Shown piece after piece: positions 1 through 50,596 of a stretch of 64,000 nt of DNA. A program made the translations under genes and the position numbers. Under the pieces are notes generated by a model. It worked only from the letters and a program-made list of their open reading frames with translations. It was not told where the DNA came from and did no database searches. This stretch comes from Thermoplasmatota archaeon (GTDB lineage: Archaea > Thermoplasmatota > JASEFT01). Position 1 is the first letter of the stretch. The number at the start of each line of letters is the position of its first letter. Where the stretch lies: positions 15,111-79,110 of the forward strand of contig JASEFT010000001.1 of assembly GCA_030018475.1 (NCBI GenBank), given 5' to 3'.

Positions 1-951
1 GGCAGTCATGAGAAAGTCTCTGATAAAGATGCTAGAAATCTTTTAGGAATGCCTTTAAATTATATTTCTAGTAGCTCTAAATATCCTAATGAGTTTGAAT
101 ATGTAGGTAGTACTTCAAGAGGTACTGAAGTAAAGCTCAATAAAACATATCTAGAAGCTGATTTTAGAATATTAATTGGCGATGTAGAGCTCCATTATTT
201 TGCAGGATATGGCGGCGGAAGAAAATCTATTTTGCCAGGTGTTTCTGCACATGAAACTATTCAGAGCAATCACAAGCTAATGTTCGATAGAAACTGCAGA
301 CTAGGTAATTTGGAAAATAATCCTGTTCATTTAGATATGCTAGAAGCTTACGAGCTTGCAAACGTAGATTTTTTAGTTAATGTAGTGCAGAATGCGCAGC
401 GCAAACTTGTTGGCGTGTATGCTGGTAGCCATGACGCTTTTTACAAATGCGTTGAGCTCGTTGATAGAATGTGTAAAGTAAAAATATCTGAAAAACCAGA
501 TATTGTAGTTGCAGCTGCTGATGGTCATCCTCACGATATTGATTTCTATCAAGCAATTAAAGCTATTCAGACAGTTATTGAGGTTATAAAAGAAGGTGGA
601 GTGCTAATTCTTGTATGCAAATGCTCTAATGGTATTGGAAGCGATATATTTTATCAAGCAATGCAAAAATATAGTAGTAGTGACGAGGTAAAAGCTCATT
701 TACTTGAAAATTTTGTTATGGGTGTGCATAAAGCTTATTATTTACTTAAAGCTCTTGAAAAATTAAATATTATTTTAGTTTCTGAAATAGAAAGAAATAT
801 TGTAGAGCATGTTTTTAAATTAAGGTACGCAAAGAACATAGAGGCTGCCTTAAATTTAGCATTTGAACTTGTAGGCAAAGACTCAAATATTTTAGTTTCG
901 CCTAACGGAAGTACAACTCTTGTAGAGCTAAATCGTAATAAGAATGTTTAG
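1..951 (+). CDS. LarA-like (lactate racemase family, DUF2088) protein, 5' partial (continues upstream of window)
   Basis: Open frame from nt 1 with no upstream stop in the window. Motif HYFAGYGGGRK...H resembles the LarA H-x-F-x-G-x-x-GG-x-K nickel-pincer-cofactor binding region. Overlaps the next gene by 8 nt. Confidence 0.5.
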   Translation, partial: GSHEKVSDKDARNLLGMPLNYISSSSKYPNEFEYVGSTSRGTEVKLNKTYLEADFRILIGDVELHYFAGYGGGRKSILPGVSAHETIQSNHKLMFDRNCRLGNLENNPVHLDMLEAYELANVDFLVNVVQNAQRKLVGVYAGSHDAFYKCVELVDRMCKVKISEKPDIVVAAADGHPHDIDFYQAIKAIQTVIEVIKEGGVLILVCKCSNGIGSDIFYQAMQKYSSSDEVKAHLLENFVMGVHKAYYLLKALEKLNIILVSEIERNIVEHVFKLRYAKNIEAALNLAFELVGKDSNILVSPNGSTTLVELNRNKNV

Positions 952-2029
952 ATCTTTGTATTCTTTTGGTGTTGAAAAAGTCAAATGCAGGGTCTGTGGG
1001 AAAGAAGGTATAGAAACATCAAAAACTCTCGCGGTATGCTCCAACTGCATTAAAAGTAGATGGCAAGAGGCAGAGCCTTTGGTTAAAGAAGCACACTCAA
1101 ATATAAGGGGAAAATTTTCTATGCCTATTGAGCCACCTAAAAGTGAAGGTGGTATTGATTGCGGGCTATGCTTAAACAACTGCAAGCTCAAGTCTGACGA
1201 AATAGGGTATTGCGGGATAAGAGTTAATAGAAACGGTAGAATTGAAAGTCTTGTTGGCAATAATAATGCAGTTCTAGAATGGTACTATGATGCTCTACCA
1301 ACGAATTGCGTTGCAATGGAGTTCTGCGAAAATCGCAAGCTCAGCTACCAGTACAAGAACTTAGCGGTGTTTTATGGCGCTTGTAGCTTTAATTGCCTTT
1401 TCTGTCAGAACTGGCATTATCGTCACTTAGTGAAAGAGCTGAGACCTGTAATGAGTGCAAATGAACTCGCCTCTAAAGTAGATGGAAGCACAAAGTGCGT
1501 TTGCTATTTTGGCGGCGATCCTACACCTCAAATTCTGCATGCAATTGAAACCAGTAAAATTATTCTAGGAACTAGAAATGATGTAAGAATATGTTTTGAA
1601 ACTAATGGTAGCATGAGCAGAAGTATAGTTAAAAAAGCTGCTGAGCTAGCTTTCCAATCCAAAGGTACTATTAAATTCGATTTGAAAGCTCATACTGAAG
1701 AGCTCAATATTGCGCTATGCAGCGTTTCAAATAAAAACACTCTCGCTAATTTCGAATGGCTTGCAGAAAACTTTAGTTCTGATTATAATTTCCTAGTCGC
1801 AAGTACTTTACTTGTCCCCGGCTACGTTGATGAAAAAGAAGTCGAGAATATTGCAAAATTTATCTCTGCGCTAAGCAAAAAAATTCCATATAATTTACTT
1901 GCATTTCATCCACAGTTTTATATGACCGATATGCCCGTAACCTCAAAAGAGCTTGCTTTTAAATGCTATAAAATAGCAACTAAATATTTAGAAAATGTAA
2001 GAATTGGTAATGTGCATTTGCTGGTGTGA
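944..2029 (+). CDS. radical SAM enzyme (PflA/glycyl-radical-activase-like) with N-terminal Cys-rich extension
   Basis: CSFNCLFCQNW matches CxxxCxxC. Extra CxxC...CxxC and CGLCLNNC...C cluster motifs lie upstream. 361 aa; translationally coupled to the LarA-like gene. Confidence 0.7.
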   Translation: MFRSLYSFGVEKVKCRVCGKEGIETSKTLAVCSNCIKSRWQEAEPLVKEAHSNIRGKFSMPIEPPKSEGGIDCGLCLNNCKLKSDEIGYCGIRVNRNGRIESLVGNNNAVLEWYYDALPTNCVAMEFCENRKLSYQYKNLAVFYGACSFNCLFCQNWHYRHLVKELRPVMSANELASKVDGSTKCVCYFGGDPTPQILHAIETSKIILGTRNDVRICFETNGSMSRSIVKKAAELAFQSKGTIKFDLKAHTEELNIALCSVSNKNTLANFEWLAENFSSDYNFLVASTLLVPGYVDEKEVENIAKFISALSKKIPYNLLAFHPQFYMTDMPVTSKELAFKCYKIATKYLENVRIGNVHLLV

Positions 2030-2074: not shown

Positions 2075-3238
2075 ATGAGCAATAGATTTGCTAGATCGTT
2101 GTATAGGCTAAGTGGCGAAGCTGCTTTTGAAACTCTTGCTAAAGCAAAGCAGCTGGAGCGCGAAGGTAAAAAGATAATACATTTTGAAATAGGCGAGCCT
2201 GATTTTAATACGCCTAGCGCTATAAAGCAAGCTGCTAAAAAAGGATTGGACCTCAATCTCACTCACTATGTACCTTCAGCAGGGCTTTTAGAGCTACGCG
2301 AGAGTGTTAGAGAATATATTAAAATTAAAAGAGGCTTTGAGCCAGAGCTAGAGCAAGTAGTAATAACTCCTGGCGTAAAGCCTGCGGTTTTTTATTCTAT
2401 TTTATCTTTGGTGGAAAAAGGCAACGAGGTTATATACCCAGACCCAGGCTATCCAACTTACTACTCCCTAATAGATTACGTGGGTGCTAAAAAAGTGCCT
2501 GTAAAGCTTGTAGATGAAGAAGAGTTTAGAATGACTCCTGAGGATATTAACGAAAAAATCACTAATAAAACTAAGCTTATTATCCTAAACTCACCAGAAA
2601 ACCCTACAGGTGGAACGAATACAGAAAAAGATATGAAAGGTATCGCTGAGTTAGCTGAAGATCATGATTTGTTCGTAATATCTGATGAAATATACTCAGA
2701 GATAATCTATGATGGCAAGCATTATTCTCCATGTAAATACGATGCTTGCACTGAGCGCTCAGTACTTATAGACGGCTTTTCTAAATCATTTGCAATGACT
2801 GGCTGGAGGCTTGGCTATATTATTACTAATAAAGAGCTTGCACGAAAAATAACTACTTTCATTACAAACTCAGTTAGCTGTACCAACTCTTTCGTTCAAT
2901 ACGCAGGTATAGAAGCGCTAAGGCGTTGTGAACAAGAAGTAAAAAAGATGGTTAAAGAATTTAAGCGCAGAAGAGATGCTATAGTTAAAGGATTGAATTC
3001 TGTAAAAGGATTTAAGTGCCTATTACCCAAAGGCGCTTTCTATGTATTCCCTAATATTGAAGAAACAAACTATACTTGCGAAGAGCTTGCAGAGCTTCTA
3101 TTAGAGAAAATAGGAGTCTGCACATTGCCTGGAACAGCTTTCGGAGAAGGCGGTAAGGGGCATATTCGCTTCTCTTACGCAAATTCTATTGAAAACATAG
3201 AAAAAGGGGTAGAGCTAATAAAATCAATATTAGGCTAG
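2075..3238 (+). CDS. class I/II (aspartate-family) PLP aminotransferase
   Basis: NSPENPTG motif and PLP-lysine motif SFSKSFAMTGWRLGY. 387 aa. Confidence 0.85.
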   Translation: MSNRFARSLYRLSGEAAFETLAKAKQLEREGKKIIHFEIGEPDFNTPSAIKQAAKKGLDLNLTHYVPSAGLLELRESVREYIKIKRGFEPELEQVVITPGVKPAVFYSILSLVEKGNEVIYPDPGYPTYYSLIDYVGAKKVPVKLVDEEEFRMTPEDINEKITNKTKLIILNSPENPTGGTNTEKDMKGIAELAEDHDLFVISDEIYSEIIYDGKHYSPCKYDACTERSVLIDGFSKSFAMTGWRLGYIITNKELARKITTFITNSVSCTNSFVQYAGIEALRRCEQEVKKMVKEFKRRRDAIVKGLNSVKGFKCLLPKGAFYVFPNIEETNYTCEELAELLLEKIGVCTLPGTAFGEGGKGHIRFSYANSIENIEKGVELIKSILG

Positions 3239-3753
3239 AGCGGCTCTCTAGCAGATGCTTTTGTGCAATAATAATCGTTATAACTCACGTTTTCACCTGA
3301 ATAACCAATACCTGAAGCTTCTACTCTGAGTTTCCACATGCCTGGCGTAGGGCTCGATATCAGTGGAGATTCTTCCGCAGTCTCTCTATAAGTTTTGTTA
3401 AAATATATGCCATCCGGCGAATCTAAAGATACAGTTACATACCTTTGCTGAGCTATTATCTCAGTAAGCGGTATAAGCTCTGCAATCTCCGGAAAAGTCT
3501 TAATATTAACCTTGATATCTATACGTAAAGAGTAAGTTCCTTCAATTATTGTAAACTGCTTCTCATCAGTTTGCTGCTCTGGAATAATTGTAGTGAATGT
3601 ATATTCTAAACTGGCTTTATCAGTAATTTTATAATTTATCTCGGGAAGAAAAGTCTTTCCACCGAACAGCTCTTTACCTAAATGGACATCTAAGCACCCT
3701 GAAATACTAATTGTAACAGAAATAATCACGAAGGCTAAAAGCGCAGTTTTCAT
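3235..3753 (-). CDS. secreted lipoprotein-like hypothetical protein
   Basis: N-terminal hydrophobic signal with a lipobox-like ISGC. 172 aa. No recognisable catalytic motif. Confidence 0.4.
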   Translation of the reverse strand: MKTALLAFVIISVTISISGCLDVHLGKELFGGKTFLPEINYKITDKASLEYTFTTIIPEQQTDEKQFTIIEGTYSLRIDIKVNIKTFPEIAELIPLTEIIAQQRYVTVSLDSPDGIYFNKTYRETAEESPLISSPTPGMWKLRVEASGIGYSGENVSYNDYYCTKASAREPL

Positions 3754-7888: not shown

Positions 7889-8332
7889 TCACCAAATTTT
7901 TTCAAATTGTATTTCTGTATTGAGTTGTGCTAGACAGGAAGAACAATAATGCATTCTCAGCGAAGATATGTTACCCTGATAGTGTTCTTTTCCGTCCATA
8001 GCACAACCACAGGTAGTGTCATAGAGACCACAGTTATGCCCCAATTCATGCGTAAAAAACTGTACTTGTCTTTTCCAATATTTGCCCCCTGTCGAAACAG
8101 CATCCCAGTATATCATGTGATCAAAAAGTACGAATGTGTTTCCTGGTCGATAACCTTTCCCCCTATCAGTTTCGTCAATACCGCTTTTATGTGCCATTAT
8201 ACAGTACCTTAACTCAAAGGTAAAAGGGAAGAAACGAAAGGTGGCTAGGTGAAGGACGTAAGCCTCATTCTGTTCAGCCTTTCCTATTACTAGAAAAAGG
8301 CTTGATAGCATGTGACTAAGCGCCCTACTCAC
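7889..8332 (-). CDS. amzA: archaemetzincin-like zinc metallopeptidase
   Basis: HELGHNCGLYDTTCGCAM followed by a downstream CSSC. This fits the archaemetzincin pattern HExxHxxG...C...CxM...CxxC. Confidence 0.55.
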   Translation of the reverse strand: MSRALSHMLSSLFLVIGKAEQNEAYVLHLATFRFFPFTFELRYCIMAHKSGIDETDRGKGYRPGNTFVLFDHMIYWDAVSTGGKYWKRQVQFFTHELGHNCGLYDTTCGCAMDGKEHYQGNISSLRMHYCSSCLAQLNTEIQFEKIW

Positions 8333-8459
8333 AGTCTTGAGCTAGTCATCCTGTTCTTTGGGCTTGCTCTAGAGTAAGATAGCCGTTTCACCAAATCTCT
8401 TTAGAACTTCATGCTCTTGCAATCATCATATACTAAAGAGCTGTGCCGTTTCTGCGCTT

Positions 8460-8745
8460 AACTTAAGGCTCTCGCCTTGCAAGCTTGCGCTTGCGCTCCT
8501 GCTCTCAGAGGGAGGACTTTCCTCAGAAGCCTTTTTCTTTTCTTTCCAAGAAAAGAAAAAGCCTTCAGGGAAAAAAGAAAAGAAGCTACGCAATTAGTAA
8601 TTGTTATTGCATTAGCAATCTTCGTATTCTCAAGGGGTTGCAAGGCAATCCCTTGCTTCTTTTTCTTTTCCACAGAGCGCTTTTCTTTTTCTTTTAAAGA
8701 AAAAAGAAAAGGGCTCCCGTGAGCTATCTGCCTTCTCCTAGCCAT
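8460..8745 (-). ncRNA. candidate structured ncRNA, copy B of a two-member family (unknown function)
   Basis: A series of near-perfect hairpins (GGAA and CUUG loops) with an enclosing helix. ~70% identical to the plus-strand element at 44563-44856, with compensatory stem changes. A TATA-like box (plus 8746-8760) lies just 5' on the minus strand. The ORFs that overlap it are low-complexity artefacts. Confidence 0.5.
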
Positions 8746-13796: not shown

Positions 13797-14465
13797 TTAG
13801 AGATAGAAATCAGCGTTAGGATTGCCATCAAATTGCATCGGCTGATCGTTTGCCCAATCCGTGCCCCAATTAATATAATCAGTATAGTATGCGCTCCAAG
13901 CAGCTGCGAAATTACCTTCCATATCTGTAGAATTAGAATTTCCATTTACCAAGCCCCACTCTAAAAACCAGTAAGTCCAAGCGCCGTTCTGATATTCATC
14001 TACATCATAGCCCAAGCCTGTTACGGTACATGTTGTAGTGCAGTAGAATGTAGAATTGTTTGGAAGCGCTGCAATATTATCAATAAACCCGCCTGAGTAG
14101 CAGTGGTCTAAAAAGATAAAATTTCGGCTTGCTTTTGAATTTGCAAACAAAGCTGCCAGCTCATAATCCCATAAATTGCCGTCCTCACCACTTTCTCCTG
14201 CACCAGAGTCCCACATACAGAGGTAAGCCGAGTTTGCGCCCCCGTAACCTCCGTGCCCTGAAGAAACAAATGCAATAATATCGTTTTCGCCAGCAATTGA
14301 AAGTACGTATTGTAATATTTGCTTTATATTGTATTCAGTTGCATATCCGTCCCACTTAGGATAATTAGATATATTCCCGTCCCCATAGACCCAGCATGTG
14401 TAGCCCTGAGCCACGAAAAAAGTTATACCAGTCTGATGCATCTTCATCGCAGTATGATAAGTCAC
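13797..14465 (-). CDS. caspase-like (clan CD, C11/C13-type) cysteine peptidase domain, frame-shifted C-terminal continuation of the 1953-aa surface protein
   Basis: The domain begins in the upstream ORF (KKYAIIVGISDY...CDEDASDWYNFF). It continues here in another frame (VAQGYTCWVYGDG..., SSGHGG His, LDHCYSGG Cys). The frames meet at a T6 run near plus 14413-14418. A 1-nt change restores one ORF. Confidence 0.6.
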   Translation of the reverse strand: MTYHTAMKMHQTGITFFVAQGYTCWVYGDGNISNYPKWDGYATEYNIKQILQYVLSIAGENDIIAFVSSGHGGYGGANSAYLCMWDSGAGESGEDGNLWDYELAALFANSKASRNFIFLDHCYSGGFIDNIAALPNNSTFYCTTTCTVTGLGYDVDEYQNGAWTYWFLEWGLVNGNSNSTDMEGNFAAAWSAYYTDYINWGTDWANDQPMQFDGNPNADFYL

Positions 14466-17400
14466 TCATAACTTTATAATCTGAAATTCCAACTATGATA
14501 GCGTATTTCTTAGCGCTATAAGAGCTTACAACGTATAAAGTTACCCATTCAAAATATGCGTCATCGTAAGGATTAGGGTCTCCGCCAGGAACTAACGTGA
14601 TTATAGTTGTGCCGCTAACAGATACATTCACACTAGAATAGCTAGATAACAGATAGCCTGCCGGCAGCTCTATAGTAAATATTGCGTTTTGGGTGTAAGG
14701 TATTTTTACTTTGATGTTATGAGCTCCAACTGAAGGTGTTCCGGAAGAATACATATTATAAGAGACTGTAAGCGATATTGGTGCGTTAAGATTCCACATA
14801 CCTGTAATATTGCTAAAAGCAGTTGTCATACCGCCTGGCTGAGTTATGTAATAATATAGATTATCCAAAATGAGTGTATCAGCAGTATTGAAATAAGGGC
14901 TACCGAATTCAGGGCTTGTCCAGAGCATTGTCAGAAACTTTTCAGCTTCACTTTCATCTACTATATAATCGCCGTTACCGAAAAAGTCTATCATTAGTCG
15001 TAGAAGAGCACTACAGTTTATTCCAAACTGGATATTCATTGTTAGCGATAACTGCTCCCAAGTATAGAATTTTGCATAGCCACTCATTGTTATTGGTTCA
15101 GGATGCCCCAAAATAAAGTTTAGAGATATATCATTATACGCGTCAATCTCTTGATAAGCAATCGTTATTGTTCCCCTCGGCATTTCTGCAAATAGTTCTG
15201 CAATACCGATATAATGTCCTGGAGAAACTGCAACCTGATAATAGCCTGTAGAGTCTGTCATACCGCCGTATAGCTTAGAGCTGTTATAGAACCATACTAT
15301 GCCATTTGCTACCGGCTTGTTTTCAGAATCGTAAACATACCCTGAGACCGTAACTGTACCTGACTGTATTATGATCTTGCATTCCAGACTTCCGCCTTGA
15401 GCTACCGTGACTCTAACGGCGTTGCTGCATGGATACGAAGAGGCTAGTATTAACACATTGCCTGCAAGCACGCCTATACTATAATAGCCTGTAGAATCTG
15501 AAAAAGTATAGTTAGACCATTGATAGCCTTTTGCATCAAAACATATTACACTAATAGATGCATACTGTACAGGGTTACCGTTTTCATCACTAACGTATCC
15601 GTAAATTGAGGCGTTAGCAACAGGCATAGGCTCGAGCATTAAGTCCAACTGTAAACTACTGCCTACTAAAAGATATGTGGTTGTATAATTGGAATAGTAA
15701 GCTCCATACATAGATGCGTGAATTCTTACACTCCCTGCAAGCACTCCTATCTTATAATAGCCTGTTTCGTTAGTCCATGTATAATTCCACCAATAATTTC
15801 CTTGCGAGTCGTAACAAGATACGCTTATTGAAGCGTAAGGTATACCAGTATTTGCAACCGCATCTTTTACGTATCCGTAGAGCCATGCGTTAGCAACAGG
15901 TTTCGGCGTTAAGTAGATATCCAGAAGTAGCGATTGCCCTTGGGAAACGGTCACTGTGGTCTCGTTAGAGTAATAACCATCTGCGTAGACGTGAATTTTT
16001 ACACTTCCTGCAAACACTCCTATCTTATAATAGCCTGTTTCGTTAGCCCATGTATAATTCCACCAATAATTTCCTTGCGGGTCGTAACAAGATACGCTTA
16101 TTGAAGCGTAAGGTATACCAGTATTTGTAACCGCATCTTTTACGTATCCGTAGAGCCATGCGTTAGCAACAGGTATAGGAGTTAAGTAGATATCCAGAAG
16201 TAGCGATTGCCCTTGGGAAACAGTCACTGTGGTATAGTTAGAGTAATAACCATCTGCGTAGACGTGAATTTCTACACTTCCTGCAAACACTCCTATCTTA
16301 TAATAGCCTGTTTCGTTAGCCCATGTATAATTCCACCAATAATTTCCTTGCGGGTCGTAACAAGATACGCTTATTGAAGCGTAAGGTATACCAGTATTTG
16401 TAACCGCATCTTTTACGTATCCGTAGAGCCATGCGTTAGCAACAGGTATAGGAGTTAAGTAAATATAATTCCAAATTATCTGGCCCTCTGAGATATTAAA
16501 ATCTTCGCAGTAGTATATATAACCTTCTGCGTAGACGTAAATCCAATAGCTCCCATGCGGTATATGGAATTCGAAATAGCCCGACTCGTTTGTATAAGTC
16601 CAATCGTTGTAGTAGGAATAGTTGCACTCGTAAGAGAACTTTGAGTATATCATCACATATGCACCAGATATAGGCTCTTTCGTTACGTTATCATAAACAT
16701 AGCCTTTCTTCCAGCAGTCTTTAGCTACCGTAGGCTCTAAAGTTATATTGTTCCAAAGCACCTTACCCTGAGCTAAAGTAAATTCTTCGTAATAATCTTC
16801 GTACCCTGCAGACCGTACATATAAGTAATACTTGCCGTGCGGAATGTAAAACTCATAATACCCTGTTGCACTAGTAGAAGTTTGATTGTACCAGCCTACT
16901 TCAGACCATATATACACGTAAGCACCTTTTATAGGCTCCGATGTGCTACTATCCCGAACATAGCCTTTCTTCCAAGAATCTTTTTCAGTACCGTAAGGTA
17001 CTAGGTATATCTTATTCTCTAATGTTTCCCCTTTCTTTATTACGAACTCTTCGTAGTAGCTACTGTAGCCAAAATGGTAGATATAGAGTGAAGCGTTGCC
17101 GTGAGGAATACCAAGCTCGAAGTAGCCTGTTCCGTTTGTATAAGTATAGTTATAATAGTACCAAGACCAGTCTGGTGCATAGGAATAAATGTACACAGAA
17201 ACATTTTGCAGACACTGATTTGTAGCTGAGTCGTACACGTAACCCACCTTCCAACAGTCTACCTCCGGTACATAATAAGGCTCCAGACTGATATTATTCT
17301 GTTTAGTGTCATTCTTTTGAATAGTGAACTCCTCGTAGTATAAATAATATCCCTCAGCCCATACAGAGATATAGTAAGAGCCGTGTGCCAGCCCTAATTT

Positions 17401-20226
17401 GAAATAGCCAGTTGCATTAGTATAAGTCCAGTTATAGAACCACCAACTTTGATTATAAGAGCATACATATACGTAAGCATTACTTATTCCTTTATCTGTA
17501 CTCTTATCATATACTTTACCTTCTTTCCAAGAATCTTCTCTCGGTACATAGTAGGGCTCTAGTTTGATAAGATTCCATTCCGTAGAATTTGGCTTGAGAC
17601 TAAACTCGCCATAATAACTATAGTACCCGTCAGCCCATACATAGATATAATAGGAGCCGTTAGGTATGCCAAGCTCAAAGTAGCCTGTAACATTAGCAGA
17701 AGTCCAGTTATAATACCACCATGTTGCGCTCTTAGAATAAACGTAAACGTATGCATCTTTTATAGGACTGTTCGTTGCGTTATCATAAACATAACCTTTC
17801 TTCCAAGAATCTTCTTTAGGTATATAGTATTTCTCTAGAGCTAAGTGATTCGTTTTAGTCTCGTTCGCATTTAAAGTGAAATTTTCGTAATAAGAATAGT
17901 ACCCTTCGGCATAGACGTACAAATAGTAACTGCCGTGCGGCAATGAGAAATTGAAGTAGCCTGTACTATCGGTAGATGTGTAATTCCAGTAGTACCAGTA
18001 GTCTGTAGAATAAATGTACACGTAAGCGCCCTCGATAGACATGTGATTTTCTTTATCGTATACATATCCTTCTTTCCTACAATCATCCACAGTAGTCGGG
18101 GCTTTAAGACGGATATTATTCAATACAATCTCGCCACTTTTCAAATTGAAACTTTCGTAATAAGAGTAGTACCCTTCAGCCCAAACGTAAATTTCGTATT
18201 TGCCTGCGGAAAGATTGAATTTGAAAGAGCCGTTTGCATCTGTTTGTGTATAGTTATAGAATGAGTAGTCTGCAGAATATACATAGACCCATGCGCCTTC
18301 TATAGGAGTAAACGAGCTTGCATCGCAAACGTATCCTTTCTTCCAGCCCTCAACAACGCCTTCAATGTAAATATCGAAGAACACGTCGAAGAAGCTATCA
18401 TGGACTATGTGCACTTCATGGTTGCCTGAAGATAAGTTCTTGACAGCGCATGTACCATTAACAGTTTTACCTTGATATACGCTGTCAGTAAATATTTTCG
18501 CATTACTTATAGGATAGTTTGTGCTATTCCATACATAGAACTCAACATCGTTGTAAATTCCATCTCCATCAAAGGCAGATATTGTGTAATCTGTAGTCAT
18601 ATAATCGCCGACAGTAAATTCTGTATAGGCATATAGAGTTGCATAGTACACATCAACTTTATATTTGCCCGGAGAGAGGTTAGAAAGGTAAAGTTTACCC
18701 TCTGCAGATGTGTTGCCTCTATAATTACTGTTTAATATTACGCTTGCATTCGCTACCGGCGTGTGATTAGAATCTTTCACATAGACCCAGCCGCTATCTA
18801 ATGCTAATACATTCCAATCCCAAAGCCATTCTGCATAAATAAAGTATCCAACTTCTGCAGTTGCATTGCCAGTATATAGAGAGCCTGCCTTTACCGCTTT
18901 TATAATGTGCTTACCGTGAGGGAGAGTAACTCTCAAGTTCCCAGTGCTGTTAGTCTTCCCCATATACCTGTTGTTAATATATATAATTGCATCAGCAACA
19001 GCACCTGTATCGTTGTACACATGTGTCACTACTGGCGAATATCCTCCACCAACACCACGTGTGCTGGGAAGTACTTCAGTAGTAATATAAAGTGTATTAC
19101 CTACATCTATAACTGTACTTGAGACAAAAGTTTGATAAATTGCTTTGACTTCACGCCAGCCATCAGCCACGTTGAGCGCTTCAAAATCGCCAGGCGCGAA
19201 ATCGCCAGGGCCTGTCTTACCTTTGTATTTTCTATCTATGTAAATGGAAGCATTATCTACAGGTAAATTATTAGAATCGCAAACAGATATGCGCAAATCG
19301 TTATTGTAGCCTATACCGTCGATATTTTTCTTTTCAACCTTAATACTAATCCCAGTTATAGCTCTTACACTCGTAGTCAGCGCTATTGAATCTTTTTTGG
19401 TAGGGTCACTAGTAGAAGTAGCATTTACCCAGACCGTCAACTGCGCACCTTCAGCAAAATCGCCAGCAGTGACTCTAAGTGTGAGCTCAGCAAAATCGCC
19501 TGGCGCAAGTGCCTTTTCTGCAAATTTCGTAAAGTCGCCTGGAGCAAAGACGATCTCAGGACTTAAATTAAAACTCACAGGCCAATCTAAAGAGCTTCTT
19601 GTAATTGTCAAGTTAATTGTATCGCTTACAGTTCCGTTATTTTTTACAGTAATTTCGTATATCACACTTCTGCCACGAGTTATGTACTTACTAAGCTCCA
19701 GACAGCTTAGCTCTATTCCATAAGGTGATATTGCAGTTGTAGTTCTAGAAATAGAAGAGCTCTTGGTAGGATCTCCTTGAGAAGTCCCTGTTACTGTTAT
19801 CGCTGCAGAACCAACAGCATGTGGTGCAACTACATTAAGTGTTATTGTGGTCTCTCCACCTGCATCTAATATAACAGACTCGCTACTAAGTGTAGCAGTC
19901 CAACCCGTAGGGGGCGAAGTCCTAGAAATAGAGATTGTATCTTTTACATTACCAGTATTTCTTACAGATATTTGGTAAGTAGCTGTAGCACCGATATTAA
20001 TGGTTTTGTCAGGTTCTGCACAGCTCAGCTCAACTCCGTATACTGCAGCAGTAGGCGCTACCCAAGGCTTCATTAAAACTACTGCGCATGCAGCCACTAC
20101 TATAGCTACCGCAGCAACCGCTACGCCAATTAAAACTTTCTTCTTCACCATTTCTTTCAACCTCTTTTTATGTGCTTTTTCAATAAAATCCTCAATCTCT
20201 CTCCACTCATTTCTTTCCTTTGCCAT
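14365..20226 (-). CDS. giant cell-surface protein (N-terminal TM anchor, CARDB-like domains, ~16 transthyretin/CarboxypepD_reg-like repeats), 1953 aa
   Basis: Cytoplasmic N-terminus plus TM (VLIGVAVAAVAIVVAACAVVLM). Repeated ~91-100-aa units (KxGYVYD...GYFEL.IPHGSYYIYVWAEGYY...). Very dense NxS/T sequons. Confidence 0.8.
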   Translation of the reverse strand: MAKERNEWREIEDFIEKAHKKRLKEMVKKKVLIGVAVAAVAIVVAACAVVLMKPWVAPTAAVYGVELSCAEPDKTINIGATATYQISVRNTGNVKDTISISRTSPPTGWTATLSSESVILDAGGETTITLNVVAPHAVGSAAITVTGTSQGDPTKSSSISRTTTAISPYGIELSCLELSKYITRGRSVIYEITVKNNGTVSDTINLTITRSSLDWPVSFNLSPEIVFAPGDFTKFAEKALAPGDFAELTLRVTAGDFAEGAQLTVWVNATSTSDPTKKDSIALTTSVRAITGISIKVEKKNIDGIGYNNDLRISVCDSNNLPVDNASIYIDRKYKGKTGPGDFAPGDFEALNVADGWREVKAIYQTFVSSTVIDVGNTLYITTEVLPSTRGVGGGYSPVVTHVYNDTGAVADAIIYINNRYMGKTNSTGNLRVTLPHGKHIIKAVKAGSLYTGNATAEVGYFIYAEWLWDWNVLALDSGWVYVKDSNHTPVANASVILNSNYRGNTSAEGKLYLSNLSPGKYKVDVYYATLYAYTEFTVGDYMTTDYTISAFDGDGIYNDVEFYVWNSTNYPISNAKIFTDSVYQGKTVNGTCAVKNLSSGNHEVHIVHDSFFDVFFDIYIEGVVEGWKKGYVCDASSFTPIEGAWVYVYSADYSFYNYTQTDANGSFKFNLSAGKYEIYVWAEGYYSYYESFNLKSGEIVLNNIRLKAPTTVDDCRKEGYVYDKENHMSIEGAYVYIYSTDYWYYWNYTSTDSTGYFNFSLPHGSYYLYVYAEGYYSYYENFTLNANETKTNHLALEKYYIPKEDSWKKGYVYDNATNSPIKDAYVYVYSKSATWWYYNWTSANVTGYFELGIPNGSYYIYVWADGYYSYYGEFSLKPNSTEWNLIKLEPYYVPREDSWKEGKVYDKSTDKGISNAYVYVCSYNQSWWFYNWTYTNATGYFKLGLAHGSYYISVWAEGYYLYYEEFTIQKNDTKQNNISLEPYYVPEVDCWKVGYVYDSATNQCLQNVSVYIYSYAPDWSWYYYNYTYTNGTGYFELGIPHGNASLYIYHFGYSSYYEEFVIKKGETLENKIYLVPYGTEKDSWKKGYVRDSSTSEPIKGAYVYIWSEVGWYNQTSTSATGYYEFYIPHGKYYLYVRSAGYEDYYEEFTLAQGKVLWNNITLEPTVAKDCWKKGYVYDNVTKEPISGAYVMIYSKFSYECNYSYYNDWTYTNESGYFEFHIPHGSYWIYVYAEGYIYYCEDFNISEGQIIWNYIYLTPIPVANAWLYGYVKDAVTNTGIPYASISVSCYDPQGNYWWNYTWANETGYYKIGVFAGSVEIHVYADGYYSNYTTVTVSQGQSLLLDIYLTPIPVANAWLYGYVKDAVTNTGIPYASISVSCYDPQGNYWWNYTWANETGYYKIGVFAGSVKIHVYADGYYSNETTVTVSQGQSLLLDIYLTPKPVANAWLYGYVKDAVANTGIPYASISVSCYDSQGNYWWNYTWTNETGYYKIGVLAGSVRIHASMYGAYYSNYTTTYLLVGSSLQLDLMLEPMPVANASIYGYVSDENGNPVQYASISVICFDAKGYQWSNYTFSDSTGYYSIGVLAGNVLILASSYPCSNAVRVTVAQGGSLECKIIIQSGTVTVSGYVYDSENKPVANGIVWFYNSSKLYGGMTDSTGYYQVAVSPGHYIGIAELFAEMPRGTITIAYQEIDAYNDISLNFILGHPEPITMSGYAKFYTWEQLSLTMNIQFGINCSALLRLMIDFFGNGDYIVDESEAEKFLTMLWTSPEFGSPYFNTADTLILDNLYYYITQPGGMTTAFSNITGMWNLNAPISLTVSYNMYSSGTPSVGAHNIKVKIPYTQNAIFTIELPAGYLLSSYSSVNVSVSGTTIITLVPGGDPNPYDDAYFEWVTLYVVSSYSAKKYAIIVGISDYKVMSDLSYCDEDASDWYNFFRGSGLHMLGLWGREYI
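15620..16460. repeat. intragenic tandem repeat, 273-bp period, ~3 near-identical copies (91-aa protein repeat)
   Basis: The string gccatgcgttagcaacagg recurs at 15883, 16156 and 16429. Long stretches between them are identical. Confidence 0.85.
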
Positions 20227-25902: not shown

Positions 25903-26487
25903 TTACTTTTTCCAAATTTTAATTATAGCAACAAATCCTAAAACTATGCACAAGCTTATAAGAATGCTGTACACAGAGCTTAGCTCTAGCGAATCTGAAA
26001 GTTTCAAGCTAAAGCAGGCAATAAGTTTGCTAAATGCTAATACAAACGCTGCAATTAAAGTTATCGGTAGCATTAGCAGCGATGTAGCACTCAAATAAGG
26101 CTTAGCAAGTTTTGCCCAAGCTTTAATATTGACAAGTTTTGCATAGCTACAACTCCATTCTAGGAACCATAGTAGCGCCACCGAAAATATGAGTAATTCT
26201 ACAACTTCTATAATTTTCAGCTCACGCACTGGCGATAGCGTTGCAATTGCGAGCATTGCGGCAGTGAAAAGCACTACTCCCCAAGTACTTCTTGCAACCA
26301 CTGCGTAAATACCTAGAATTATTGGCAAATAAAACAAACCAGTTGCAAGTATTATTTGTAAAAAACTCATTTTTTCGTAGCTCGCTATTTCTAACACCTG
26401 CGGCAGGTGCAGTGAGTAATTTAAATAGATAATAAAGGGTAGAAAAGCAATAAGTACTAAAACTATCTTGTTAATCTTAGCTTCCAT
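25903..26487 (-). CDS. polytopic membrane protein, hypothetical (last gene of the MoxR/DUF58 operon)
   Basis: 194 aa with 5-6 predicted TM segments. 25-nt overlap with the DUF58 gene. Confidence 0.45.
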   Translation of the reverse strand: MEAKINKIVLVLIAFLPFIIYLNYSLHLPQVLEIASYEKMSFLQIILATGLFYLPIILGIYAVVARSTWGVVLFTAAMLAIATLSPVRELKIIEVVELLIFSVALLWFLEWSCSYAKLVNIKAWAKLAKPYLSATSLLMLPITLIAAFVLAFSKLIACFSLKLSDSLELSSVYSILISLCIVLGFVAIIKIWKK

Positions 26488-27713
26488 TTAGATTCCATCA
26501 CCTCTAATACAGGCGCTAATGGTAGTGAAGCTCGCCACTCTATAACTTCAGCACCGCACTCTTTTAGACCAGTAACTAATATTTCACGCTCCAATTTTAG
26601 GATTTCTAAGCTCTCAAGTGCAAGTCCGCGCTCTAGCTCTAGAGCTGAAGGTGTAAGCACTGTAAGAGAATAACCTCTATCGCAAATTTCCTTTACACCT
26701 TGCTTTAGACTATCATCCTCTTCAAGACTAGAAATCAAAATAATCACAGATTGTGGAGTAGCTATAGAAACTAAACTTCTGGCTACAGAAGAAAAACCAA
26801 TGCTACCATCACTTTTTATTTCAGCAAGAGCGCATAGTATTTTGTAAAGCTGCCTTTCGCCATAGCCTGGTGCTAAACTTTTAATAGCGTTGCTATAAGT
26901 TATCAATCCCACATTGCATCTCCTTCTAATGAAGAAGGCGGCAATAGAAGCGCAAGCTCTAGCAGAATAAACCAAAGGATTTGCATTTATATAGCCAGTG
27001 CCAGTTATGCTGCGTGCATCTAAAATAATTGTGACATCAGAAATTGTTTCTAGCTCTCTTTGCACAACCATGAGTTTTCCTAGCCTAGAGTAAACTTTCC
27101 AGTTGATGTCTTTGAAAGGGTCTCCGCTTACATAATCACGCATACTAAAAAATTCTAATCCACGGCCTGGATATTTTATAGGAATAGTGCCTGGTATCAT
27201 TCTTGGTACTACAGCTCTTACTTCGAATTCTTTTAACTCCTCTATTTTAGGAAACACAATAAGCTCTGAGATAATATCTAGCCGGCTCTCTTTGTAAAAC
27301 ATCGAAAAAGGGTCTTCAGTTCTAACACTCAAAGGGCCTATTGTATAAACGCCTCGTAAAGGGCACTCTACAGAATATTTAAAAACATAGCTTTTGGCAG
27401 GCTCTAATATTGAAGTAGCGCAGTTATTACCTTCTCTCAACGCAAACACTTTAGGAAGCTCGTCTTTGAGCTCAACAGTTCCTTTACCTTTAATATAAAG
27501 AGTAATTTCTGCAGAGCCTTCTTCAAACAGCTTTTCAGTAGAAAGCTCTCTTGTGACTTTTAAGTTGGGCTTTCGTATAGTAAAAGCTCCCACTACGAGC
27601 ATTGAGAATATGAATACTGCGAATGTAGCAAGTGAAAAATTTTTCAAAATAAGCGCAAGAAATATTAGTAATATGCCGAGCACGCAGATTAAAATACTTT
27701 TTTCAGTCCACAT
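26463..27713 (-). CDS. DUF58 (VWA-like) domain protein with N-terminal TM segments
   Basis: Two N-terminal TM helices followed by a DUF58-type domain. Canonical partner position downstream of MoxR. Confidence 0.6.
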   Translation of the reverse strand: MWTEKSILICVLGILLIFLALILKNFSLATFAVFIFSMLVVGAFTIRKPNLKVTRELSTEKLFEEGSAEITLYIKGKGTVELKDELPKVFALREGNNCATSILEPAKSYVFKYSVECPLRGVYTIGPLSVRTEDPFSMFYKESRLDIISELIVFPKIEELKEFEVRAVVPRMIPGTIPIKYPGRGLEFFSMRDYVSGDPFKDINWKVYSRLGKLMVVQRELETISDVTIILDARSITGTGYINANPLVYSARACASIAAFFIRRRCNVGLITYSNAIKSLAPGYGERQLYKILCALAEIKSDGSIGFSSVARSLVSIATPQSVIILISSLEEDDSLKQGVKEICDRGYSLTVLTPSALELERGLALESLEILKLEREILVTGLKECGAEVIEWRASLPLAPVLEVMESKWKLRLTR

Positions 27714-27722
27714 TGGCTTTGC

Positions 27723-28673
27723 TCATAGTGCAGGCACCGGTACTTGCCTCAGAATATCTTCTAGAACATTCTCGCTTGTAACGCCTCTTACTCTAATCTC
27801 AGGCTTTAGTATCAATCTATGCGCTACCCCTGGGATTACAGCTCTTTTCACATCGTCAGGCGTAACGTAATCGCGGTTGTTAAGTATAGCAATGGCTCTT
27901 GCAATTTTGAAAACAGCTAAAGAGCCTCTGGGGCTAGCGCCTAAAACCAATCTTTTATCAGCCCTTGTCCTTGCGATTATTTCTACAATATATTCCTGGA
28001 TAGAGCTATCAATATGGATTTCTTCAACTGCTTTCTGTAACTCAAGTACTTTCGTAGGATTTGCTATAAGATCAACGTTTACATCTTCGCTTTTCCTGGC
28101 TATTCTTCTTCGCATAATCTCAATCTCATCCTTTTTATCAGGATACCCTATTCTTAGGCGCATTAAAAACCTATCTATTTGAGCTTCTGGTAACGGGTAA
28201 GTACCTTCGTATTCAATTGGGTTTTGAGTAGCCATCACAATAAAAGGTTTGGGTAATACATGAGTAATTCCTTCTATTGTGGCTTGCCTCTCCTGCATTG
28301 CTTCAAGTAAAGCTGATTGCGTTTTAGGGGGTGCTCTATTAATTTCGTCAGCTAATAAAATATTAGTGAATAAAGGTCCTTTACGAAGCTTGAATTCACC
28401 TGAGCTTTCATCATACACATAAGTACCTATAATATCTGCCGGCAGTACATCGGGTGTAAATTGAACCCTTCTGAAACTACAGCCTAGTATGCGAGCAAGT
28501 GTTTTCGCCATTAGAGTTTTAGCCAAGCCTGGAAAATCCTCAATAAGTATATGCCCATCGCAAAGTACTCCAGCCACAACAAATTTCAGAACATTTTCTT
28601 TTCCTACTATTGCTTTCTCTGCTTCTTTGATTATATTATTTGATATTTTCCACGACTCCTCTCTACTATTCAT
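27723..28673 (-). CDS. moxR: MoxR-family AAA+ ATPase
   Basis: Walker A GHILIEDFPGLAKT, Walker B LLADEINRAPPKTQSALLEAMQE. 316 aa. Confidence 0.88.
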   Translation of the reverse strand: MNSREESWKISNNIIKEAEKAIVGKENVLKFVVAGVLCDGHILIEDFPGLAKTLMAKTLARILGCSFRRVQFTPDVLPADIIGTYVYDESSGEFKLRKGPLFTNILLADEINRAPPKTQSALLEAMQERQATIEGITHVLPKPFIVMATQNPIEYEGTYPLPEAQIDRFLMRLRIGYPDKKDEIEIMRRRIARKSEDVNVDLIANPTKVLELQKAVEEIHIDSSIQEYIVEIIARTRADKRLVLGASPRGSLAVFKIARAIAILNNRDYVTPDDVKRAVIPGVAHRLILKPEIRVRGVTSENVLEDILRQVPVPAL

Positions 28674-29800
28674 GTTCTTCCCACTCCCAGCTTTTTTACA
28701 GCTCTAACAAGTTCCTCGCGAGTAATACTCTTGCCCCTTACTATTTTAGTAACTACAGGGTCGATACTATCTAGTTGTTTGTCGTTCAAGAGCTCAATCT
28801 GAGATATGTTGTAAGCTATTTTAACTTTTTCAACCACAGCTTTTGCAGCTCTTTCGTAAATATTTTGAGGCTCGTAAGACTTAAATTCTCTAATATTGAA
28901 CTCGTGCTTCCAAGGTATTTTGCCTTTTGATTTTATTATCACGCAAGCAAGTACAGCACCAACAATAATAGAACTTAATACAACCCATAACTGGTACGAA
29001 GTTAAGAATATTATGGTAGCGAGTGCTATATAGCTGCCGTGTCTGCTTTCATCGAAAATTACAACGGCATACTCTGATTGCGGCAGTAGCGAGCTTACAA
29101 GCTCTAGAATAAAGTCCAAATTATCTTGCTTCACTATCATTCGATTAATAAATATACTGGGATCGGCGATAAAAACTATAGCGCCTGCGCCAAACTTGAT
29201 TTTTAGAATTAGGGGCATGTCTTGAATAAGCTCGTCATCTAAATCTATGATTCGATTGCCATTCCAATCGATATAACATTCTAAAGCTTTACATATTATT
29301 TCAATTTCTTCACCATATATTCTAAACCCTGTAGGAATGTTAAATACAAGCTCATATTTTTTACCGTTGAGCACTGCGCAAGCATTTACAAATTCAGGTG
29401 AATCAGTAAAACTTTCATAATATATTCTGTGCTCGTAAAATGTAAAATTGAATTTTTCAGCTAAATTTCTTATGTTGCCGGTATCGTCTGCAATTATAGC
29501 CTTGCCGCCATTTTGCACAAACTCGTAAATACCCCAGGCTTCTTCTTCTGTATAAGGCTTCTCCACACCTGTAACAATAAGTAAAGTATCAGCGGGATTT
29601 AGATTCTGTAGTAATATGGGCGTTGATACAATACATTTAGGAATGTAGTTCCTTGCTTTAAGCTCTTCTCTTAGAATTGACACATCTGCCCAGCTAGTAT
29701 CGTAACCTGAAAGTTGCTTGGTATTGTAAGAAGGAATAAGTAAAATTGCAAGAGTTGTTATTATGAAAATACTAATTAGAATCTTAATTTTCAACTTCAT
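28670..29800 (-). CDS. bitopic membrane protein with GATase1-like ectodomain (DUF4350-like)
   Basis: N-terminal signal anchor, central GGKAIIADD-containing domain, and a second TM near the C-terminus. 4-nt overlaps on both sides. Confidence 0.4.
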   Translation of the reverse strand: MKLKIKILISIFIITTLAILLIPSYNTKQLSGYDTSWADVSILREELKARNYIPKCIVSTPILLQNLNPADTLLIVTGVEKPYTEEEAWGIYEFVQNGGKAIIADDTGNIRNLAEKFNFTFYEHRIYYESFTDSPEFVNACAVLNGKKYELVFNIPTGFRIYGEEIEIICKALECYIDWNGNRIIDLDDELIQDMPLILKIKFGAGAIVFIADPSIFINRMIVKQDNLDFILELVSSLLPQSEYAVVIFDESRHGSYIALATIIFLTSYQLWVVLSSIIVGAVLACVIIKSKGKIPWKHEFNIREFKSYEPQNIYERAAKAVVEKVKIAYNISQIELLNDKQLDSIDPVVTKIVRGKSITREELVRAVKKLGVGRT

Positions 29801-33063: not shown

Positions 33064-33066
33064 TTT

Positions 33067-36210: not shown

Positions 36211-36212
36211 AG

Positions 36213-44464: not shown

Positions 44465-44562
44465 TCTAAAAACTATAATATACTGGAACGTTTATTTAGC
44501 TATCGCGATTTAGCTATCAAGGAAAAACTTCGTTTTTCCTCTTATCATTCGCCTCTGCTTAC

Positions 44563-44856: not shown

Positions 44857-44895
44857 CTAAAAAGCGATCTCGTTCAACGCAGTTCACACATTACA

Positions 44896-44903
44896 TTTAT
44901 AAT
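44896..44903 (+). promoter_or_regulatory. TATA-box-like element for orc1/cdc6 (leaderless transcript likely)
   Basis: tttataat lies ~25 nt upstream of the ATG at 44926. Confidence 0.35.
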
Positions 44904-44925
44904 CCCACAACTACTTTTCCTCTGT

Positions 44926-49993: not shown

Positions 49994-50596
49994 TTATTCC
50001 TCAACAAGTTTCCTTTCAACTATTTTCCCTCTAGGCGAGACCTCTGAAAATATCTGAGCTTGGAATTTATAAATTTTGATGTCTTTACTCAGCCAAGCAT
50101 CTGGTGGTAAGCCTGCTTTCATACACACATGTGTAAGAAAATCTTCTTCATCCCACTTCCACTCGACAGGAACTTGCGGTAGCAAAATACCTCTAAAAAG
50201 AGCTTTCTCTGCAATTAGTCCGTCAACGCCAATCTTAATCTTCTCTTTGTATTCAAGAGGATGTCTGACTTCAATTAGCTCAGGGTGTGTTAAAATACTT
50301 AATTCTACAACTATTTTATCAATTTCTTGCTCAGTTAAAGGCTCAAATCTAGGGTCGTTACATGCGTTCTGAGCACTCTCTATTATCGCATTTGCTAGTT
50401 CTAAACTAGGTTCTAGATAACCTATACATCCACGTAGCTCTTTCTCAGGATATGTATTGATAGTAACGAACACGCCTAATTTTTGATCGAATTTAGCTGA
50501 TAACTTTTCTGTGATTTTTGGCTCGCCTTTCACATATCTTTCAATCGTTTCTCGTGCAAGCTTCACTGCCTTTATACCTTCTTCTAAAGAGAGCAT
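49994..50596 (-). CDS. AMMECR1 domain protein
   Basis: Conserved LRGCIGYLEP motif. 200 aa. Confidence 0.8.
   Translation of the reverse strand: MLSLEEGIKAVKLARETIERYVKGEPKITEKLSAKFDQKLGVFVTINTYPEKELRGCIGYLEPSLELANAIIESAQNACNDPRFEPLTEQEIDKIVVELSILTHPELIEVRHPLEYKEKIKIGVDGLIAEKALFRGILLPQVPVEWKWDEEDFLTHVCMKAGLPPDAWLSKDIKIYKFQAQIFSEVSPRGKIVERKLVEE

Follow-up and report, generated by a model that had tools for sequence, protein, structure and literature searches.

An overlapping LarA-like and radical SAM gene pair in a Thermoplasmatota archaeon probably reflects a local gene-order habit of a few archaeal lineages

The stretch of Thermoplasmatota DNA analysed here (64 kb, the window) opens with two overlapping genes, one of the LarA superfamily, whose enzymes use the nickel-pincer (NPN) cofactor, and one for a radical SAM protein (rSAM). 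An earlier note, made from the sequence alone, had suggested that the second product could be a maturase or activase of the first, and had added that the pairing was not known as a characterised system. In agreement with this last remark, a literature search yielded no report that ties LarA and its nickel-pincer cofactor to a radical SAM enzyme. The question is whether the two genes form a dedicated two-part system or are joined by gene order only. When the window rSAM was looked up by its exact sequence, no match came back, and two proteins were used as stand-ins, P0001 for the rSAM (98% identical) and P0121 for LarA (100% identical across the portion present in the window).

As read from the window ORFs, frame 1 is uninterrupted from nucleotide 1 to a TAG at 949–951, and holds the 3' three-quarters of a LarA-superfamily gene (1..951, plus strand, 316 codons and a stop). 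The first 98 codons (294 nt) are clipped by the window edge; the complete copy, encoding 414 aa, is present in a 99%-identical relative (L001:2268-3512). The ORF 49..951 was rejected as the extent of the gene, as position 49 is an internal ATG and the true start lies 294 nt before the window. Even in its truncated form, the product matched both Lar_N (PF09861, 98.9 bits, cutoff 23.3) and LarA_C (PF21113, 85.6 bits, cutoff 25), and this domain pair places it in the LarA superfamily, in agreement with the earlier note, which had called it LarA-like (DUF2088). Full-length P0121 scored 398.5 bits, under the cutoff of 500, on the MAR/LarAH6 equivalog model NF052593, and the full-length homologue scored 311.7 bits on NF033504 (cutoff 460). 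The best solved relative was Mar2 (PDB 6d6z, E 7e-73). Judged by its sequence, the window protein falls in the malate-racemase-like branch of this superfamily.

In Lactiplantibacillus plantarum LarA, K184 tethers NPN, H200 is a nickel ligand, H108 and H174 are catalytic, and D72, R75, Q295 and K298 are further reference residues (L. plantarum numbering, PMC7583248). P0121 was aligned with this protein (PDB 5huq) by HMMER, and D72, R75, H108, H174, K184, H200, Y294, Q295 and K298 all had equivalents. On the plus strand of the window, the catalytic histidines correspond to codons H3 (nt 7-9; P0121 H101, L. plantarum H108) and H65 (nt 193-195; H163, H174), the NPN tether to K75 (nt 223-225; K173, K184) and the nickel ligand to H91 (nt 271-273; H189, H200). 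Codons Q184 and K187 are P0121 Q282 and K285 (L. plantarum Q295 and K298); P0121 D67 and R70, which correspond to D72 and R75, fall just beyond the window edge. The NPN-binding and catalytic set is thus complete, and it is conserved in 13–15 of 15 close homologues. The protein looks like an ordinary NPN enzyme as far as its residues tell, and with all NPN ligands present there is no reason to invoke unusual cofactor chemistry.

The substrate-pocket residues of the window protein are of the MAR type and not of the LAR type found in L. plantarum LarA. The MAR signature 'GHK' is formed by codons G241, H243 and K244 (nt 721-732, plus strand; G339-V-H341-K342 of P0121, at L. plantarum D356/W358/T359) and was invariant in 15 homologues; it suggests that malate or a similar dicarboxylic hydroxy acid would be the substrate. 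Mar2 of Thermoanaerobacterium thermosaccharolyticum, a LarAH6 protein, aligns end to end with the window protein in the same two-domain LarA fold family, and shares its NPN-binding and catalytic residues, its 'GHK' motif and a Phe at the position of L. plantarum T353. The 'GHK' motif and this Phe are both typical of MAR groups. The two proteins differ in the loop residue that follows the catalytic His-Tyr, which is Phe in the window protein and Lys in Mar2; the window substrate may therefore differ from that of Mar2. Compared with Mar2, the window protein is archaeal, scores below the LarAH6 cutoff and is a candidate racemase by sequence.

Unlike its L. plantarum counterpart, the window gene lies outside any larABCDE operon. 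Models of LarB (AIRC), LarC (DUF111) and LarE found no match among the scanned ORFs of the 64-kb window, in line with the earlier observation that none of these genes is nearby. None was present either in the 2.3 kb upstream of the LarA gene in L001; of the three genes there, one encodes a protein with a PKD domain, another a DUF7121 protein, and the third, clipped by the contig end, a 180-aa product that has no Pfam assignment.

The second gene (944..2029, plus strand) encodes a 361-aa protein that matches the radical SAM model PF04055 (52.6 bits). Its start, ATG 944-946, is backed by an N-terminal 'MFRxL' conserved in distant homologues. Three cysteine motifs were recognised: an N-terminal Cys4 ribbon, C15-x2-C18 ... 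C32-x2-C35 (986..1048), its four Cys invariant in 21 sequences; an auxiliary-cluster-like motif, C73-x2-C76-x3-C80 ... C90 (1160..1213), its Cys invariant in the alignment; and the radical SAM cluster motif C147-x3-C151-x2-C154 (GACSFNCLFCQNW, 1382..1405), also invariant (all on the plus strand). From this pattern, the ribbon may bind Zn or Fe-S, and C73, C76, C80 and C90 may form a cluster-binding site. The AF2 model was confident (pLDDT 87.6 overall, 94–97 in the ribbon), and its closest fold was that of the pyruvate formate-lyase activating enzyme PFL-AE (3c8f/8fo0, TM 0.74–0.77 target-normalised, Foldseek E 6e-10); the cores of NifB, HydE and viperin were also matched. The CxxxCxxC motif and the partial TIM-barrel core place the protein in the radical SAM superfamily, and the earlier description of a PflA-fold rSAM with extra Cys motifs agrees with the Pfam match, the profile scores and the fold. 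The fold search yielded a PflA-type core and nothing further, and a sequence search of the PDB returned PflA only (E ~5e-3).

Homologues of this rSAM are 46–58% identical across archaeal and bacterial phyla. Of 600 pattern matches in species-representative genomes, 594 turned out to encode relatives, which puts the family in at least 594 species; it spans Bathyarchaeia, Thermoplasmata, Methanomassiliicoccales, Hydrothermarchaeota, Dehalococcoidia, Brocadiales, Aminicenantes and others. Clustering at 50% identity (E<=1e-30) gave 213 groups, a large share of which were fragments. None of the best 120 homologues, all 338–394 aa long, showed a fusion to LarA, AMMECR1 or Memo; among the best 150 representatives, the three longest proteins were intein carriers, and three other over-length relatives that were tested had radical SAM/Fer4_12 domains only, or no Pfam match. 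This rSAM family is widespread, strongly conserved, slowly evolving and uncharacterised.

At the junction of the two genes, the rSAM start codon (ATG 944-946) sits within the last codons of the LarA gene (stop TAG 949-951), giving an 8-nt overlap, ATGTTTAG (944..951, plus strand), where the earlier note had placed it. The rSAM gene is therefore expected to be co-transcribed with the upstream ORF, so that the co-expression proposed earlier is accepted as a reading of the overlap. Judging by the overlap alone, ribosomes that finish the upstream ORF probably go straight on to translate rSAM. A class I/II aminotransferase gene, aspartate-aminotransferase-like (2075..3238, plus strand; PF00155 222.7 bits; 357 bits on NF041091, cutoff 550), begins 45 nt past the rSAM gene on the same strand. 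It follows rSAM in L001 and in the related loci L169/L170 (86% identical) and at no other rSAM locus. Within this lineage alone, it probably completes the transcription unit as a third gene; it was rejected as the true rSAM partner as it is conserved only in the immediate lineage of the window. A terminator-like hairpin with a T-run at 3234-3252 is weak evidence in an archaeon, and a sigma-70 promoter scan gave 14 matches for 11 expected with a model that is uninformative for an archaeon.

We examined how far the pair is conserved. The expectation that it would be found elsewhere held in L001, with the same ATGTTTAG junction, and in three further loci (L006-L008) in which LarA is 55% identical and separated from rSAM by a 4-nt gap. 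It failed in close LarA relatives (L005, L089 and L176, 56–59% identity), where rSAM is not beside LarA, and in close rSAM relatives (L002, L003 and L174/175), where LarA is not beside rSAM. In the broad sample it failed throughout: no LarA gene was found near rSAM in any of 80 representative genomes (flanks up to 10 kb, 886 kb in total; 59 of the 80 loci with at least 1.5 kb of upstream sequence). In L169/L170, where rSAM is 79% identical, LarA is reduced to a 110-aa in-frame remnant that lacks the VAIVVDDNTRP motif, H101, H163, K173 and H189, and the rSAM gene, the overlap (ATGTTTAG again, the upstream ORF being the stub) and the aminotransferase gene are intact.

Other arrangements were observed further away. 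In L173, a different MAR-like LarA paralogue (32% identical) lies 3.1 kb upstream of rSAM. A Bathyarchaeia lineage carries LarA, GNAT, in some cases a 184-aa protein, and rSAM in this order on a single strand; among the 30 loci of one LarA cluster that could be assessed, 11 had this arrangement, which is compact in L121 (gaps of 30–60 nt), whose LarA passes NF052593 with 509.4 bits. By Bathyarchaeal sub-cluster, the LarA–rSAM link was seen at 6/8 and 3/4 loci, but at 0/9 and 0/3 in two others. A MAR-like LarA thus lies within 0–3 kb of rSAM in three LarA lineages of two phyla, and LarA-family genes near rSAM are commoner than a naive chance estimate. No neighbour of rSAM was conserved family-wide; nitroreductase, DUF72, ThiS/MoaD-like and GNAT genes, considered as partners, were each seen at 4–15 loci. 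Conservation of the pair is thus confined to sub-lineages, both of the rSAM family and of the LarA clade. In conclusion, the LarA–rSAM pairing is probably a local gene-order habit of a few archaeal lineages and not a dedicated two-part system. The two may nevertheless be loosely linked in function, because a MAR-like LarA recurs within 0–3 kb of rSAM in three lineages.

A functional tie between the two proteins could take several forms: rSAM could be the maturase or activase of LarA, stand in for a missing step of NPN biosynthesis, or act on the same hydroxy-acid-derived metabolite, the two genes then forming a two-component operon. The overlap kept in L001, the 4-nt gap kept in L006-L008 although LarA is only 55% identical there, the second paralogue in L173, the compact Bathyarchaeal order, the lack of larB, larC and larE in the window and the lack of prior literature are in its favour. 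These are outweighed by the 80 representative rSAM genomes devoid of a nearby LarA, by LarA relatives at 56–59% identity that do without rSAM, by the absence of fusion proteins and by the patchiness of the link in Bathyarchaeia, where a housekeeping GNAT gene, a neighbour of rSAM also in lineages without LarA, may bring it about indirectly. The maturase or activase idea in particular is not supported, because the NPN-binding set of LarA is complete, the rSAM family is far wider than the pairing, and rSAM stays intact beside a LarA decayed to a stub. Taken in all its forms, we regard such a tie as decidedly unlikely.

The rSAM could belong instead to one of two known systems. The label 'pyruvate formate-lyase activating enzyme' given by some sources, and by JGI to many homologues, would make it the activase of a glycyl-radical enzyme, in line with its fold, nearest to that of E. 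coli PflA (3c8f/3cb8/8fo0), which has CxxxCxxC at the same position. However, identity with PflA is 17–18%, the window protein is about 115 residues longer N-terminally and carries two extra Cys4 modules foreign to PflA, and the activase models were matched far below their cutoffs (TIGR02493, PFLA, 39.5 of 231.75 bits; TIGR02494, PFLE_PFLC, 24.3 of 174.35; NrdG, 36.9 of 131.15). Neither the window nor the recurrent neighbours of rSAM included a glycyl-radical enzyme, and this assignment is highly improbable. The other system is AmmeMemoRadiSam, whose name was found in the literature as an annotation label only, and in which the window rSAM would act, as main or as second, accessory radical SAM component, with the AMMECR1 homologue (AmmeMemoRadiSam protein A) encoded at 49994..50596 on the minus strand. 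That homologue is genuine (PF01871, 177.7 bits; TIGR04335, 179 bits, cutoff 99), as the earlier note had recognised. The rSAM of the system (TIGR04337) is moreover the best-scoring curated family for the window protein; the two have in common a PflA-like core and, towards the N-terminus, a CxxCxxxC...C auxiliary motif: the C73–C90 region aligns with the N-terminal part of the model, from position 8 onward. True TIGR04337 genes directly adjoin members of the window rSAM family in seven loci (L002, L043, L062, L065, L073, L075 and L081), which come from several phyla. Membership of this subfamily, assumed in the earlier note, was nevertheless contradicted: the window rSAM scored 74.8 bits for a cutoff of 220 and four other family members 50.7–74.6 bits, whereas neighbouring true members scored 252.6 and 324.8 bits. 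At its N-terminus the window protein carries an additional CxxC...CxxC ribbon (about 60 residues) outside the TIGR04337 match, which begins at residue 67, and nothing in the protein corresponds to the last ~60 positions of the model. Since the same genomes can hold both the rSAM family and true TIGR04337 genes, the family is paralogous to the AmmeMemoRadiSam rSAM and does not belong to it. As for the partners, AMMECR1 is 48 kb away in the window and not linked to the LarA–rSAM locus, it lay within 10 kb of rSAM in 2 of the first 88 loci, and no Memo homologue was present among the scanned window ORFs, as noted earlier. A role of the window rSAM in the AmmeMemoRadiSam pathway is, on balance, unlikely.

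The reading that we favour, and consider reasonably probable, is that of a lineage-specific three-gene unit (LarA homologue, rSAM and aminotransferase) in which the functions of the first two genes are unrelated and gene order is all that connects them. The first would encode an NPN-dependent 2-hydroxy-acid racemase of the malate-racemase-like branch, with the cofactor tethered to the conserved Lys and the nickel held by the conserved His; the two other His would shuttle the proton while the hydride is transferred to the pyridinium ring, and the cofactor would be supplied by larB, larC and larE, presumably present elsewhere in the genome. The second would encode a stand-alone radical SAM enzyme, whose PflA-type core would cleave SAM at the C147/C151/C154 cluster to give a 5'-deoxyadenosyl radical. 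Its second Cys4 site probably holds an auxiliary Fe-S cluster, like that of the paralogous AmmeMemoRadiSam rSAM, and the family-specific N-terminal ribbon probably docks a macromolecular or cofactor substrate, which would be something other than LarA. Translational coupling would account for an upstream ORF that preserves its start, its end and its frame in loci where LarA itself is destroyed.

With these results, the malate-racemase-like branch of LarA proteins gains an archaeal member; no new LarA maturation system is revealed. They also bring to attention a large rSAM family that has no assigned function and in which some members carry inteins. Given its repeated placement beside both gene types, this family might act in a pathway that touches nickel-pincer/hydroxy-acid chemistry or the AmmeMemoRadiSam product, an idea that we hold to be quite improbable. 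The placements concerned are those in three LarA lineages (Thermoplasmatota and Bathyarchaeia) and at the seven AmmeMemoRadiSam loci. Were this idea true, the window operon would be a rare place where the partners are still joined in a translationally coupled unit. If the proximity of rSAM to LarA or to AmmeMemoRadiSam genes is functional, it would provide a first handle on the substrate of an rSAM family that occurs in hundreds of anaerobic species, both archaeal and bacterial.

The reading frame upstream of the radical SAM gene (frame 1) has no stop codon between window position 1 and the TAG at 949–951, so the LarA gene is truncated by the window edge; the ORF 49..951 of a mechanical ORF list was rejected as the gene start, its ATG being internal to a frame open from nt 1. 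The 3' part present (1..951, + strand) matched Lar_N (98.9 bits) and LarA_C (85.6 bits). The whole gene was found at 2268–3512 of L001, a 99% identical contig (GCA_030017735.1, 'Candidatus Thermoplasmatota archaeon'), where it codes for 414 aa; protein P0121 is 100% identical over the part inside the window. The 361-aa product of the radical SAM gene (rSAM; 944..2029, + strand) matched Radical_SAM at 52.6 bits. The ATG of this gene (944–946) lies inside the final LarA codons, and the genes therefore overlap at 944–951, where ATGTTTAG is common to both; this start is credible because distant homologues open with the same 'MFRxL'. The earlier note was thus right on both gene identities and on the 8-nt overlap. 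A class I/II aminotransferase gene (2075..3238, + strand) lies 45 nt 3' of rSAM, the gene after that is in convergent orientation; positions 3234–3252 hold a hairpin with a T-run. LarA and rSAM are presumably co-transcribed and coupled by termination–reinitiation.

The closest solved relative of the LarA homologue is the malate racemase (MAR) Mar2 (6d6z, E 7e-73); lactate racemases come next. The defining LarA residues are listed in L. plantarum numbering in PMC7583248, and were mapped by HMMER alignment of P0121 to L. plantarum LarA. All nine are present in P0121: D67 (D72 in L. plantarum), R70 (R75), H101 (H108; window codon 3), H163 (H174; codon 65), K173 (K184; codon 75), H189 (H200; codon 91), Y281 (Y294), Q282 (Q295) and K285 (K298); each is kept in 13–15 of 15 close homologues. 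The positions that distinguish malate racemases ('GHK' motif) are G339/H341/K342. Judged from these residues, the nickel-pincer nucleotide (NPN) site is intact, and the protein looks like an ordinary NPN enzyme; it is a member of the LarA superfamily and of its MAR-like branch. On the NCBIfam model for LarAH6 malate racemases (cutoff 500), full-length P0121 reached 398.5 bits, and it stayed under the cutoffs of all other LarA equivalog models, too; its substrate would be malate-like. In an alignment of LarA homologues (A2), Arg replaces the NPN-tethering Lys, at the column of P0121 K173, in two 45% identical proteins (P0141 and P0142), in which for this reason the cofactor may be bound non-covalently.

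LarB, LarC and LarE models gave no match among the window ORFs scanned, which agrees with the earlier claim that these genes are absent near the pair. The three genes 5' of LarA in L001 likewise include no candidate (they encode one protein with a PKD domain, one DUF7121 protein and, truncated at the end of the contig, a product of 180 aa without Pfam result); larB, larC and larE are presumably sited elsewhere in the genome.

A protein-collection search with rSAM returned thousands of matches, the best 120 of which cover it end to end (48–98% identity, 338–394 aa). In an alignment of 21 diverse members (mean column identity 63%), the invariant cysteines are C15/C18/C32/C35, C73/C76/C80/C90, C122/C128, C147/C151/C154 (the SAM cluster) and C185/C187/C217/C341; the extra Cys4 sites would hold Fe-S or Zn. 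An AlphaFold model built from this alignment is confident (pLDDT 87.6, pTM 0.88); among solved folds, E. coli PFL-AE is nearest to it (TM 0.74–0.77 on target, 17–18% identity). Relatives occur in at least 594 species-representative genomes (594/600 among the pattern matches listed), the hosts among the matches listed including Bathyarchaeia, Thermoplasmata, Methanomassiliicoccales, Hydrothermarchaeota, Theionarchaea, Baldrarchaeota, Dehalococcoidia, Brocadiales, Aminicenantes, Syntrophobacterales and Ignavibacteria. At 50% identity the family forms just 213 clusters (E<=1e-30), many of them fragments, consistent with slow evolution. Inteins lie directly before the SAM-cluster region in P0242 (869 aa), P0251 (818 aa) and P0244 (534 aa), the longest three proteins among the best 150 representatives, with LAGLIDADG domains in two; three other over-length relatives tested had radical SAM/Fer4_12 domains alone or no Pfam match. 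None of these 150 representatives was seen to be fused to LarA, AMMECR1 or Memo.

The earlier note had placed rSAM in the AmmeMemoRadiSam (TIGR04337) subfamily. This assignment fails: on the curated families that match it best, rSAM stayed well under the cutoffs, at 74.8 bits on TIGR04337 (cutoff 220), 39.5 on PflA (cutoff 231.75) and 36.9 on NrdG (cutoff 131.15), with similar scores for further family members, and true TIGR04337 genes stand beside window-type rSAM genes at L002 (9126–10160), L065 (4906–5958), L043, L062, L073, L075 and L081. Because the two co-reside, the window family is a separate paralogue that tends to neighbour TIGR04337 rSAM, which hints at a relation to the uncharacterised AmmeMemoRadiSam system. 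No family-wide neighbour was found in a survey of 103 rSAM loci; recurrent ones were ThiS/MoaD-like (15 loci, Bathyarchaeia), GNAT (9), DUF72 (8, four phyla), aIF5B (8), true TIGR04337 rSAM (7; 252.6 and 324.8 bits; Thermoplasmata, Ignavibacteria, Dehalococcoidia and others) and nitroreductase (4). The window AMMECR1 gene (49994–50596), reported earlier as 48 kb from rSAM, is confirmed there above the TIGR04335 cutoff.

Elsewhere, the window carries markers which show that it comes from an archaeon: archaeal RNase P RNA (8247–8538, - strand, 133.7 bits; the overlapping ORF 7889–8332 was rejected as spurious), RLI/ABCE1 and Orc1/Cdc6. A tRNA-Gly(CCC) gene lies at 55871–55944 (- strand). Upstream of the Orc1/Cdc6 gene (44926–46068), 460 nt of intergenic sequence contain palindromes (44609–44639 and 44701–44735), and 44465–46068 is a possible replication origin. 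In this otherwise gene-dense window, a run of short ORFs resembling aconitase-X type (DUF521/DUF126) fragments at 40040–40850 (- strand) is probably a frameshifted pseudogene. At 26463–39380 (- strand), DUF58, MoxR AAA+ ATPase and DUF4350 genes adjoin three tandem ORFs of ~1050 aa (29797–33063, 33067–36210 and 36213–39380), the first of which was the one scanned and contains Ig-like, CarboxypepD_reg and DUF4129 domains. The region resembles a gene cluster for a MoxR-type chaperone and surface proteins. Three ORFs encode putative surface proteins of very large size: 14365–20226 (- strand; 1953 aa, 13 CarboxypepD_reg repeats), 51763–55824 (- strand; 1353 aa, no Pfam match) and 60097–64000 (+ strand; >1300 aa, running past the window end).

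The pair was expected to be conserved elsewhere, with rSAM as a possible maturase or activase of LarA. Conservation held in L001 (rSAM 98% identical) and in L006–L008 (LarA 55% identical), where rSAM starts 4 nt downstream of LarA. It did not hold in L005, L089 and L176 (LarA 57%, 56% and 59% identical), which have no rSAM beside LarA, nor in L174/175 and L002 (rSAM 58%), where a nitroreductase occupies the upstream slot, nor in L003 (rSAM 52%, Methanocellales), with neither LarA nor nitroreductase. LarA was not found in the 430 nt present upstream in L171/172 (rSAM 69%). In L173 (rSAM 58%), a LarA of another subfamily (32% identical to that of the window) lies 3.1 kb upstream, beyond three opposite-strand genes. 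A tblastn search with LarA of 886 kb of flanks from the 80 best representative genomes (rSAM 46–52% identical; 59 loci with at least 1.5 kb upstream) gave no match in any of the 80; its sensitivity was adequate, since it detected the L173 gene.

The maturase or activase hypothesis is unlikely, because rSAM outlived LarA in L169/L170 (rSAM 79% identical). At these loci rSAM and the ATGTTTAG junction persist, as does the aminotransferase (86% identical), and LarA is a 110-aa in-frame remnant (1190–1522 and 322–654, respectively) in which residues ~1–100, without the VAIVVDDNTRP segment, are joined to residues ~387–414; H101, H163, K173 and H189 are all missing. The stub retains the original start, frame and rSAM-overlapping stop, as expected if the upstream ORF must be translated for rSAM to be expressed. 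Such a stub has the look of a natural deletion that left translational coupling in place, and it argues that selection acts there on rSAM, which does not need LarA.

The same rSAM family was present 0.6–1.9 kb from LarA in 12 of 80 metagenomic LarA loci (LarA 42–56% identical; the rSAM match was full-length in ten and truncated at a contig end in two), all 12 Bathyarchaeia-like. The single-strand order is LarA, RimI/Ard1-like GNAT, sometimes a 184-aa membrane-like protein, and rSAM, with shortest gaps of 30–60 nt, as in L121 (5986–8958; its LarA exceeds the malate-racemase cutoff at 509 bits) and 10 similar loci (L115, L124, L133, L137, L138, L148, L149, L152, L160 and the divergent, rearranged L135). 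Within the bathyarchaeal LarA cluster (>=70% identity), rSAM was found at 11 of 30 assessable loci (by sub-cluster 6/8, 3/4, 1/2, 1/1, 0/9 and 0/3). This proximity may be indirect, as GNAT is immediately 5' of rSAM in LarA-lacking lineages (L018, L020, L056) and follows LarA at many loci without rSAM. A MAR-like LarA lies within 0–3 kb of rSAM in three different LarA lineages and two archaeal phyla; by a rough, uncomputed estimate, a given gene falls within two genes of another by chance in a few per thousand cases per independent lineage. For this reason there may be a weak functional or regulatory link; within the library searched, no paper connects LarA with radical SAM enzymes. In conclusion, the pairing is patchy and does not amount to a new system. 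The LarA gene adds a member to a superfamily already known, and rSAM belongs to a family that is visible in databases and unstudied.
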